This document shows positions 32,951-35,900 of a stretch of DNA of 64,000 nucleotides, piece by piece. Location of the stretch: NCBI RefSeq assembly GCF_048403405.1, contig NZ_CP183129.1; one strand, 5' to 3'. Within the stretch, counting starts at the first letter, position 1, and the number at the start of each line of letters is the position of its first letter. The DNA is from Escherichia coli. Its GTDB lineage: Bacteria; Pseudomonadota; Gammaproteobacteria; Enterobacterales; Enterobacteriaceae. The position numbers are program-made.

Positions 32951-35900
32951 TAACCGGATTGCACCACCAGATGAGCACGCCGCCAGTGCCGGTGGCCTTG
33001 CCGTTGGCATTCTGGGGGCACTGAAAGCCGCAGGTGGACTGTGGTTTGGCTGGAGTGGCGAAACAGGGAATGAGGATCAGCCGCTAAAAAAGGTGAAAAA
33101 GGGTAACATTACGTGGGCCTCTTTTAACCTCAGCGAACAGGACCTTGACGAATACTACAACCAATTCTCCAATGCCGTTCTCTGGCCTGCTTTTCATTAT
33201 CGCCTCGATCTGGTGCAATTTCAGCGTCCTGCCTGGGACGGCTATCTACGCGTAAATGCGTTGCTGGCAGATAAATTATTGCCGCTGTTGCAAGATGATG
33301 ACATTATCTGGATCCACGATTATCACCTGTTGCCATTTGCGCATGAATTACGCAAACGGGGAGTGAATAATCGCATTGGTTTCTTTCTGCATATTCCTTT
33401 CCCGACACCGGAAATCTTCAACGCGCTGCCGACATATGACACCTTGCTTGAACAGCTTTGTGATTATGATTTGCTGGGTTTCCAGACAGAAAACGATCGT
33501 CTGGCGTTCCTGGATTGCCTTTCTAACCTGACCCGCGTCACGACACGTAGCGCAAAAAGCCATACGGCGTGGGGCAAAGCGTTTCGAACAGAAGTTTACC
33601 CGATTGGCATTGAGCCAAAAGAAATAGCCAAACAGGCTGCCGGGCCACTGCCGCCAAAACTGGCGCAACTTAAAGCGGAACTGAAAAACGTACAAAATAT
33701 CTTTTCTGTCGAACGGCTGGATTATTCCAAAGGTTTGCCGGAGCGTTTTCTCGCCTATGAAGCGTTACTGGAAAAATATCCGCAACATCACGGTAAAATT
33801 CGTTATACCCAGATCGCGCCAACGTCGCGTGGTGATGTGCAAGCCTATCAGGATATTCGTCATCAGCTCGAAAATGAAGCCGGACGAATTAATGGTAAAT
33901 ATGGGCAATTAGGCTGGACGCCGCTTTATTATTTGAATCAGCATTTTGACCGTAAATTACTGATGAAAATATTCCGCTACTCTGACGTGGGCTTAGTGAC
34001 GCCACTGCGTGACGGGATGAACCTGGTAGCAAAAGAGTATGTTGCCGCTCAGGACCCAGCCAACCCGGGCGTTCTTGTTCTTTCGCAATTTGCGGGAGCG
34101 GCAAACGAGTTAACGTCGGCGTTAATTGTTAACCCCTATGATCGTGACGAAGTTGCAGCTGCGCTGGATCGTGCATTGACTATGTCGCTGGCGGAACGTA
34201 TTTCCCGTCATGCAGAAATGCTGGACGTTATCGTGAAAAACGATATTAACCACTGGCAGGAGTGCTTCATTAGCGACCTAAAGCAGATAGTTCCGCGAAG
34301 CGCGGAAAGCCAGCAGCGCGATAAAGTTGCTACCTTTCCTAAGCTTGCGTAAGTGCGGTTAATCTCCCGTAAGTGGAACTAACAGCACATCGACCTCACT
34401 TGAGGCAATCACTCTTTTCGCCGAGCAGGATGCTCGCGAAAAGAAACTGTGATTGTGATTACCGCAAATCACCAAATCGAAATGATATTTGCGACAAACT
34501 TCCAGAATATGTTCGCTTAACTCACCGTAGGCAATAAACGTCTTGTCAACGGGATACCCCGCATCCTGAATTAACTTATCAAGAAAGCTTTGCGTTTCTT
34601 CCTGCATCACGCTGCGTAAATCTTCAAGCATCGGCGCAGCTAATTGATTGTACATTTCCGGGTCGGACGCGAGAGTAATTAAACTGATGTGTCCCTTTAC
34701 TGGCCTGGCGATAGATACCGCTTTTGCCAGCAGTTGCTGACTTTCCGGTGTAACCGCAACGGCGACAAGAATATTGCTATAGCTCATAACCTGTTCCTTA
34801 TTCTGTGAACTTCAGGTGACATTAAAGCTTTACTCCTAATGGAGAAACGACGCAATCCCAACTCAGTCAAACAGGTAAATATTAGTCTGATTATTAGTAA
34901 AGACAATTAATCAATCACTCTCGGTGATCATATGATTTCAACTGTAATTATAAGAAAATAATGTACTGATTCTCCATATTAAACAAGTGGTTAATATATG
35001 TAAAACATTTTATTAACATTAAGTTGATTGTTGCCTTTCTTTGTATTTAATTAGTTTGTTGTGCGGTAAGTATCTGTTTAAAAATAGCTTATCTGGTATT
35101 GCATTAAAGCAATTATTTATGGCAGATGATTATTTACGGTGAGTTATTTTAACTGTGCGCAACATCCCATTTCGATTATTCCTGTTTCATTTTTGCTTGC
35201 TAGAGTCGCGAAAAACTTTTTAACAGATTGAAATACACCCAAAACAAAAGTATGACTTATACATTTATGTTAAGTAATTGAGCGTTTTGTGTGATCTGTA
35301 TCACACATTATTGAAAATCGCAGCCCCCCTCCGTTGTATGTGAGTGTAGTGACGAGTAAAGTTGCGTCGATTTAGGAAAAATCTTAGATAAGTGTAAAGA
35401 ACCCCTTCTATTTGTGAGGACTTATTAAATCCAAAAAAGGGGCTCTGCCTGTTGCAGCTTATCGCAACTATTCTAATGCTAATTATTTTTTACCGGGGCT
35501 TCCCGGCGACATCACGGGGTGCGGTGAGACCGCATAAAAATAAAGTTGGTTATTCTGGGTGGGAATAATGCATACCTCCGAGTTGCTGAAACACATTTAT
35601 GACATCAACTTGTCATATTTACTACTTGCACAGCGTCTGATTGTTCAGGACAAAGCGTCCGCAATGTTTCGTCTCGGCATAAATGAAGAAATGGCGACAA
35701 CGTTAGCGGCACTGACTCTTCCGCAAATGGTTAAGCTGGCAGAAACCAATCAACTGGTTTGTCACTTTCGTTTTGACAGCCACCAGACGATTACTCAGTT
35801 GACGCAAGATTCCCGCGTTGACGATCTCCAGCAAATTCATACCGGCATCATGCTCTCAACACGCTTGCTGAATGATGTTAATCAGCCTGAAGAAGCGCTG

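Follow-up and report, generated by a model that had tools for sequence, protein, structure and literature searches.

An insertion-sequence-free uspC–flhD regulatory region in an Escherichia coli gut-isolate lineage

Laboratory lines of Escherichia coli K-12 gain motility through insertion of IS1 or IS5 upstream of flhD, a premise of the original prediction for this locus that is documented (PMC5100188, PMC5493358). The insertions that raise flhDC expression in K-12 lie upstream of the transcription start, with reported positions from −96 to −476, and the IS5 hot spot, a TTAA, spans −99 to −96 relative to that start (PMC5100188). The question raised by the flhDC locus described here is whether its upstream region has acquired such an element or retains its native form.

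Genomic context of the uspC–flhD region

The window, by which we mean the entire 64,000-nucleotide stretch of E. coli DNA that was analyzed, contains otsBA, then uspC (minus strand), followed by flhD, flhC, motAB, cheAW, tar, tap, and cheRBYZ (plus strand). The flhD ATG is located at 35568, and the gap between it and the uspC start is 780 bp. The region is delimited by the following features:

34359–34787, minus strand: uspC (142-aa coding sequence), which bounds the intergenic region on the left (ORF list; PGAP annotation of the near-identical strain MS 69-1)
34788–35567, no strand: uspC–flhD divergent intergenic regulatory region, 780 bp, uninterrupted (ORF boundaries; alignment with MG1655)
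35568–36499, plus strand: flhD (35568–35918) and flhC (35921–36499), both intact (ORFs)

The encoded FlhD and FlhC proteins (WP_001295647.1 and WP_001291603.1, respectively) are common to many strains. An AT-rich region of approximately 780 bp had been placed at 34788–35567, and these coordinates proved exact. The G+C content of the 780 bp is 34.7%, compared with 50.0% for the window as a whole, and reaches a minimum of 26% among 200-bp windows within the region.

The window is close to a clone of MS 69-1 (NZ_CP146675.1), an isolate from the human colon (gut), with 4 SNPs over the 59 kb compared; a 20-kb query against MS 69-1 was reported at 100.0% identity. Their near-identity allows the MS 69-1 PGAP annotation to be transferred to window coordinates. 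Of 5,426 complete E. coli genomes, 5,422 contain the sequence, and five are identical to the window over 1,701 bp.

Search for insertion sequences and frequency of the IS-free state

The region had been predicted to contain neither a transposase ORF nor IS-like ends. Consistent with the first part of this claim, the longest stop-free stretch in all six frames of the 780 bp is 62 codons, and the sole listed ORF of at least 40 aa that is mainly intergenic is a 40-aa frame that begins with TTG and overlaps the start of uspC. Consistent with the second, the terminal repeats of IS1, IS5, and IS30 had 0 matches across the window when up to three mismatches were allowed. Within the 780 bp, the top-scoring inverted repeat reaches 10 compared with a shuffle mean of 11.1 (173 of 200 dinucleotide shuffles score at least 10), and the repeat list for the region holds nothing beyond short AT-rich chance pairs.

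When aligned with K-12 MG1655, a check named together with the original prediction, the window is collinear from uspC to flhD except for a single 776-column gap. This gap consists of the MG1655 IS1H element (768 bp) and an 8-bp duplication of CATTTATG. A target-site duplication within 34788–35567, which had been named as one sign that would speak against the prediction, was not found, as both CATTTATG and TTAA are single-copy. The two insertion targets are located as follows:

35262–35269, no strand: empty target of MG1655 IS1H, CATTTATG, in single copy at about −107 to −100 (alignment gap)
35270–35273, no strand: IS5 hot-spot TTAA at −99 to −96, unoccupied (position from PMC5100188; window sequence)

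The IS, the terminal repeats, and the target duplication of the IS-activated flhDC class, represented by IS1H in MG1655 and by IS5 at −99 to −96, are therefore all absent from this region.

We also considered a less obvious form of insertion, in which 34788–35567 would hold a mobile element that is hidden or degenerate (an IS remnant or a MITE) or else the footprint of an excision. One 22-nt inverted pair with 82% complementarity (35034–35055 with 35420–35441) could be viewed as a trace of such an element, but this pair is rich in AT, extends across the promoter, and does not exceed chance in shuffles. All 780 bp are single-copy in E. coli genomes (median of 1 and maximum of 2 places per genome with each of three sub-queries), and an Rfam scan of 34300–36700 at E-values up to 1 returned no matches. 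The window and the IS-free alleles are all collinear and differ by 1-bp indels only, which leaves space for neither an IS nor a remnant or footprint. With IS ends absent from the window and the uspC–flhD spacing kept across genera, the probability of a hidden element is next to nil, and we regard this reading as effectively refuted.

The spacing itself varies little. Ten natural IS-free E. coli alleles measure 777–780 bp. E. albertii and Escherichia sp. E1V33 have a distance of 779 bp, Salmonella arizonae and diarizonae one of 786 bp, and Citrobacter, Silvania, and Pseudescherichia one of 792–795 bp. Taken together, these lengths indicate that the 780-bp form is ancestral.

The frequency of the IS-free state was surveyed with three overlapping sub-queries of approximately 270–300 bp in 5,426 complete E. 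coli genomes, a set that includes many K-12 laboratory strains. The sub-query length was chosen such that an IS1-sized insertion splits the match into two places, and a match was called unbroken when at least 80% of the sub-query was covered in one place. This threshold undercounts insertions near query ends (an MG1655-type IS1 still gives 90% coverage in sub-query 35000–35300); therefore, genomes with matches in two places were also counted. The results for each sub-query were as follows:

34760–35030: 5,415 genomes matched; 5,406 unbroken; 11 split in two places
35000–35300 (contains the hot spot of the literature): 5,413 matched; 5,369 unbroken; 47 split
35290–35567: 5,391 matched; 5,376 unbroken; 16 split

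By this census, a large interruption of the uspC–flhD region is found in roughly 1–2% of the 5,426 complete genomes, with approximately 98–99% being IS-free. The IS-free state is the population norm and the species default, and hence the observation carries little information: a wild gut-isolate lineage is IS-free by default, so the absence of an IS says little about it.

Promoter and leader of flhDC

The flhD transcription start was mapped to G 35369 from the 3′ end of asflhD in MG1655 (1978395, 198 nt upstream of the ATG). Owing to a one-base indel, the leader is 199 nt in the window compared with 198 nt in K-12. A start at 35369 puts the IS5 TTAA exactly at −99 to −96, which serves as a cross-check of the mapping. 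Relative to this start, the elements of the promoter and leader are as follows:

35290–35305, plus strand: CRP site, TGTGATCTGTATCACA, centered at −71.5, with both half-sites fitting the consensus (sequence; near-invariant across genera)
35334–35362, plus strand: predicted core sigma-70 promoter, with −35 TTGTAT (35334–35339), a 17-bp spacer, and −10 TAAAGT (35357–35362), placed from the transcription start
35369–35567, plus strand: flhDC 5′ leader, 199 nt (mapped transcription start)
35369–35386, plus strand: 5′ end of the leader, same as K-12, with CsrA BS1 at about +1 to +12 and an RcsAB box at about +5 to +18
35399–35445, plus strand: variable patch of the leader, in which a predicted stem, GAACCCCTT / AAGGGGCTC, surrounds BS2 (folding)
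35412–35423, plus strand: putative CsrA BS2 equivalent, TTGTGAGGACTT (K-12, TTGTAAGGACAT; allele alignment)
35369–35589, minus strand: region homologous to the K-12 antisense RNA AsflhD (MG1655 annotation)

When 11 additional E. coli alleles and 34 loci found in genome contigs were aligned with the window, the parts that proved near-invariant across Enterobacteriaceae were the CRP site, the −35 hexamer, the bases flanking the −10 hexamer, the leader from +1 to about +35, and the 3′ third of the leader. The conserved 3′ third runs from CCGGCGACATCACGGGGTGCGGTG to the ribosome-binding site, and the middle of the leader is hypervariable. Judged from these elements, the window appears to have the features of a native region, namely a CRP site at −71.5, a sigma-70 core promoter, a start about 198 nt before the ATG, two candidate CsrA sites close to the leader's 5′ end, and a conserved 3′ part with the ribosome-binding region.

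The −71.5 position of the CRP site is what we take to be its position in K-12 flhDC (Soutourina 1999). Among 12 alleles, only the window lineage has a T at 35299, in the spacer of this site. The right half-site reads TCACG in K-12, in contrast to TCACA in the window and nearly all other taxa. Calling the window site unusually good, a description that we tried and dropped, puts the emphasis in the wrong place, because TCACA is common and the K-12 TCACG is the outlier.

In the core promoter, the −10 hexamer is TAAAGT in the window and TACAGT in K-12. The position that differs (position 3, at 35359) is occupied by G, C, A, or T across the taxa compared, with conserved flanks on either side. A second change relative to K-12 is found in the promoter spacer at 35343. 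A consensus promoter/terminator scan identified 3 promoter-like sites compared with 3.1 expected, all on the minus strand. The flhD promoter was not called because it is too weak, as expected if it is CRP-dependent.

At the 5′ end of the leader, positions +1 to +30 show 0/30 differences across 10 alleles. For BS1 and the RcsAB box, we assume coordinates within leader +1 to +35 from Yakhnin 2013 and Francez-Charlot 2003. Further downstream, the window departs from K-12 mainly in one patch. When compared with K-12 after removal of the IS, the 780 bp differ as follows:

Upstream of the CRP site: 18 of 502 positions
CRP site and core promoter: 4 of 79
Leader, +1 to +30: 0 of 30
Leader, middle: 10 of 52
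Leader, 3′ part: 2 of 117
Whole region: 34 of 780

The leader patch therefore differs at 19% of its positions, compared with 1.7–3.6% in the flanking segments. It encloses the CsrA BS2 equivalent, which in K-12 presumably occupies +44 to +55. By its sequence, the window site retains the GGA, with G replacing A at −2. This A-to-G change at 35416, two bases before the GGA, is lineage-specific; the position is A in 11 other aligned E. coli alleles and in most other genera. E. coli, E. albertii, and many Citrobacter and Salmonella retain the GUAAGG core of BS2. The local stem predicted around BS2 has a folding energy of −13.7 kcal/mol in the window compared with −6.5 kcal/mol in K-12, and the alleles differ in base pairings at two stem positions. 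A compensatory hairpin around BS2 was considered as a line of evidence and discarded as such, staying no more than a lead, as 51–251 of 500 shuffles reached the observed values (with 8, then 10, distinct alleles). Beyond Escherichia, the middle leader segment has diverged too far for the same stem to be tested.

The haplotype is a minority one. Promoter and leader together (35290–35567) are at least 99% identical in just 147 of 5,391 genomes. The exact 55-nt leader patch (35396–35450) is present in 29 of 5,426 genomes, with close variants in 39 more, including porcine O139:H1 strains; both of the close variants that were checked have G at the −2 position of BS2.

With 34 differences in 780 bp, including −10 position 3 and BS2, native architecture does not equate to a K-12-like level of expression. 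The changes at −10 position 3 (35359), in the spacer (35343), in BS2 (35416), and in the leader patch could each shift expression. It is conceivable that the region is native in architecture but re-tuned, with the minority promoter and leader haplotype substantially changing flhDC output relative to the common alleles in the absence of any IS. The candidate changes would be the TAAAGT hexamer, the spacer change, the T in the CRP spacer, the A-to-G change at BS2 −2, and the stronger BS2 stem, and the rarity of both the haplotype and its leader patch fits this view. However, −10 position 3 varies freely among taxa, and BS2 retains its GGA core. Covariation in the stem is not significant, the observed value being reached by 51–55 of 500 shuffles at best, and folds of the whole leader are indistinguishable from shuffles (z = −1.6 for the window and −0.8 for K-12). 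In addition, the haplotype group includes O139:H1 strains, that is, strains with a flagellar H type, whether measured or predicted from sequence. We consider substantial re-tuning unlikely.

A narrower proposal concerns only the distinct leader haplotype, found in approximately 68 of 5,426 genomes, in which the A-to-G change at BS2 and the stronger stem could alter protection by CsrA and hence the level of motility. We hold this to be quite improbable; if true, the motility level would be set by point mutation and not by the IS route known from K-12. The minority leader haplotype is the only mildly unusual feature of the region, and we offer it as a lead only.

Expected control of flhDC and comparison with known systems

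The region is very probably a native, ancestral, and uninterrupted flhDC control region that is shared divergently with uspC. The prediction of native control accordingly appears to be a reasonable reading of the DNA: the region is IS-free and collinear, and it contains the CRP site, both promoter hexamers (−35 and −10), the start, the RcsAB box with BS1, and the 3′ third of the leader.

Known regulators of flhDC include H-NS, OmpR, LrhA, IHF, Fur, and others (PMC5493358, PMC5425062). By analogy with K-12, the AT-rich stretch of approximately 480 bp upstream of the CRP site would provide a repressive platform for H-NS, OmpR, LrhA, IHF, and others. cAMP-CRP would activate the weak flhD promoter, and RcsAB would bind just downstream of the transcription start. 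CsrA binds two sites close to the leader's 5′ end and shields flhDC mRNA from RNase E (PMC7652899), and may protect the mRNA in the same way through the two 5′ sites of the window leader. Several small RNAs, together with the antisense RNA AsflhD, whose promoter is at +22 of the flhD ORF (PMC9600491), would be expected to act on the leader as they do in K-12. As the upstream AT-rich DNA adjoins the promoter with no IS in between, the IS-activated state of the K-12 type has no bearing here, and flhDC expression should track normal environmental inputs.

The state of the control region would be irrelevant if the strain were non-motile through lesions elsewhere in the flagellar and chemotaxis regulon. 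One such lesion had been reported along with the original prediction, namely a broken tar gene, and it is indeed present:

41076–42735, plus strand: tar pseudogene, with G4 instead of G5 at 41116–41119 and a frameshift after codon 16

Compared with GN02461, otherwise the closest intact relative, the window has a 1-bp deletion in this G5 run. PGAP labels tar as "frameshifted" in MS 69-1 and strain 4621, and the exact 85-nt tar allele is found in just 5 of 5,380 matching genomes, three of which are sister assemblies. Since the allele is common to sister assemblies, the frameshift is probably a real clonal lesion and not an assembly error. The window also encodes a Thr-to-Pro change in cheA at 39353 that is absent from the three closest relatives. 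Both changes could be taken to favor a non-motile strain. However, it is established that loss of Tar removes aspartate/maltose taxis, that is, a taxis response, and neither flagellar synthesis nor swimming. The remaining flagellar and chemotaxis genes within the window are all called intact in the PGAP annotation of MS 69-1, where the intact calls comprise fliE, fliA, fliZ, fliC, fliD, fliS, fliT, flhDC, and motAB, as well as cheAWRBYZ, tap, and flhBAE. That the strain is non-motile through such lesions, making the control region irrelevant, is in our view very unlikely.

With the native reading, the flagellar master switch of this gut-isolate lineage is wired in the default way, and any motility phenotype would reflect ordinary regulation, point variants, or the tar (possibly also cheA) lesions, not an IS. 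The result is a clean negative that is useful for annotation and a reminder that IS insertions at this position are rare (approximately 1–2% of complete genomes). The spacing of approximately 780 bp kept across genera and the modular pattern in which the leader is conserved are neat but unsurprising.

Comparison with characterized alleles places the region among known forms. In MG1655, the corresponding region (NC_000913.3, 1978198–1979752) is 1,555 bp with IS1H, compared with 780 bp without an IS in the window. The two have the same flanking genes in the same orientation, and their native sequence is collinear with 95.6% identity. They are alike in transcription start, CRP site position, leader +1 to +30, and AsflhD region, whereas the leader patch differs.

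A natural example of an interrupted allele, met by chance, is found in E. coli MS 115-1, in which an IS30 family transposase gene lies directly upstream of the flhD region where the window has native DNA. The IS30 end (ATTGAATCTACA) adjoins native sequence at approximately window position 35030, about −340 from the transcription start, and downstream of this point MS 115-1 and the window have the same promoter and leader.

The IS-free flhDC alleles of MS 69-1, 4621, GN02461, and others are identical to that of the window. Those of O157:H7 F3113, ETEC1738, and others are related, uninterrupted, and have the same order of elements; point differences between the window and such related natural E. 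coli alleles number 10 to 38 per 780 bp. The IS-free flhDC region described here is a member of this well-known native class, and its identification as such is correct but ordinary and already known.

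Spacing and leader of the flhDC control region

The distance from uspC to flhD, spanned in the window by the 780-bp, insertion-free flhDC control region (34788-35567), falls between 777 and 795 bp across the compared loci (L016-L052) of Escherichia, Salmonella, Citrobacter, Silvania, and Pseudescherichia. Despite this steady length, much of the sequence differs between these genera. Because the spacing is kept while much of the sequence diverges, the comparison suggests a constraint on the length or architecture of the region.

Within the flhDC leader (35369-35567), the middle portion at 35399-35450 is 19% divergent from K-12, compared with approximately 2-4% in its flanks. 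This patch includes a lineage-specific A-to-G change at 35416, adjoining the GGA of the presumed second CsrA site (BS2). The stem arms predicted in the patch differ among alleles, and their covariation among these alleles was not significant.

Chemotaxis genes and neighboring features

Features outside the control region include the following, in window coordinates.

41076-42735: tar, with a G4 run at 41116-41119 and a frameshift after codon 16
54899-55999: torY, a pseudogene with an internal stop, as called by PGAP in MS 69-1 and strain 4621
1893-2033: integrase fragment, adjoining fliE
2217-3331: frameshifted DUF5503 gene, adjoining fliE

The G4 run in tar, at which the frame is lost, is G5 in relatives. 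PGAP labels tar as "frameshifted" in both the near-clonal human gut strain MS 69-1 and strain 4621. Just 5 of the 5,380 genomes share the exact tar allele of the window. Two of these five, 2013C-4974 and strain 167, lie outside the close matches to the lineage, which may point to recurrent slippage or sequencing error.

Only four SNPs separate the window from MS 69-1, located at 3457, 18125, 27622, and 39353. The last is an A-to-C change in cheA that converts a Thr codon to Pro (…DLIPSMGQL…) and is not present in MS 69-1, 4621, or GN02461. The integrase fragment and DUF5503 gene situated beside fliE (1893-3331) look like the remnant of a decayed island bordering the fli region.

The flhDC locus in K-12 and natural isolates

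In the CRP site of flhD, MG1655 has TCACG as its right half, in contrast to the consensus TCACA in the window (35305). TCACA is also present in every other natural E. coli allele aligned and in the aligned loci of the other genera. The exact K-12 65-mer carrying TCACG occurs in 403 genomes; among the exact matches listed, laboratory strains form the majority. TCACG might contribute to the weakness of the IS-free K-12 flhD promoter.

The annotation of E. coli strain EC-129 places the start of flhC later, so that the gene measures 531 bp rather than 579 bp. The FlhD of EC-129 is a variant protein, and the master operon of this strain is possibly damaged.

MS 115-1, a natural human isolate, carries IS30 upstream of flhD (locus positions 1-340) at the equivalent of window position ~35030. 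This places the element at approximately -340 from the flhD transcription start, within the range of the flhDC-activating insertions in K-12.
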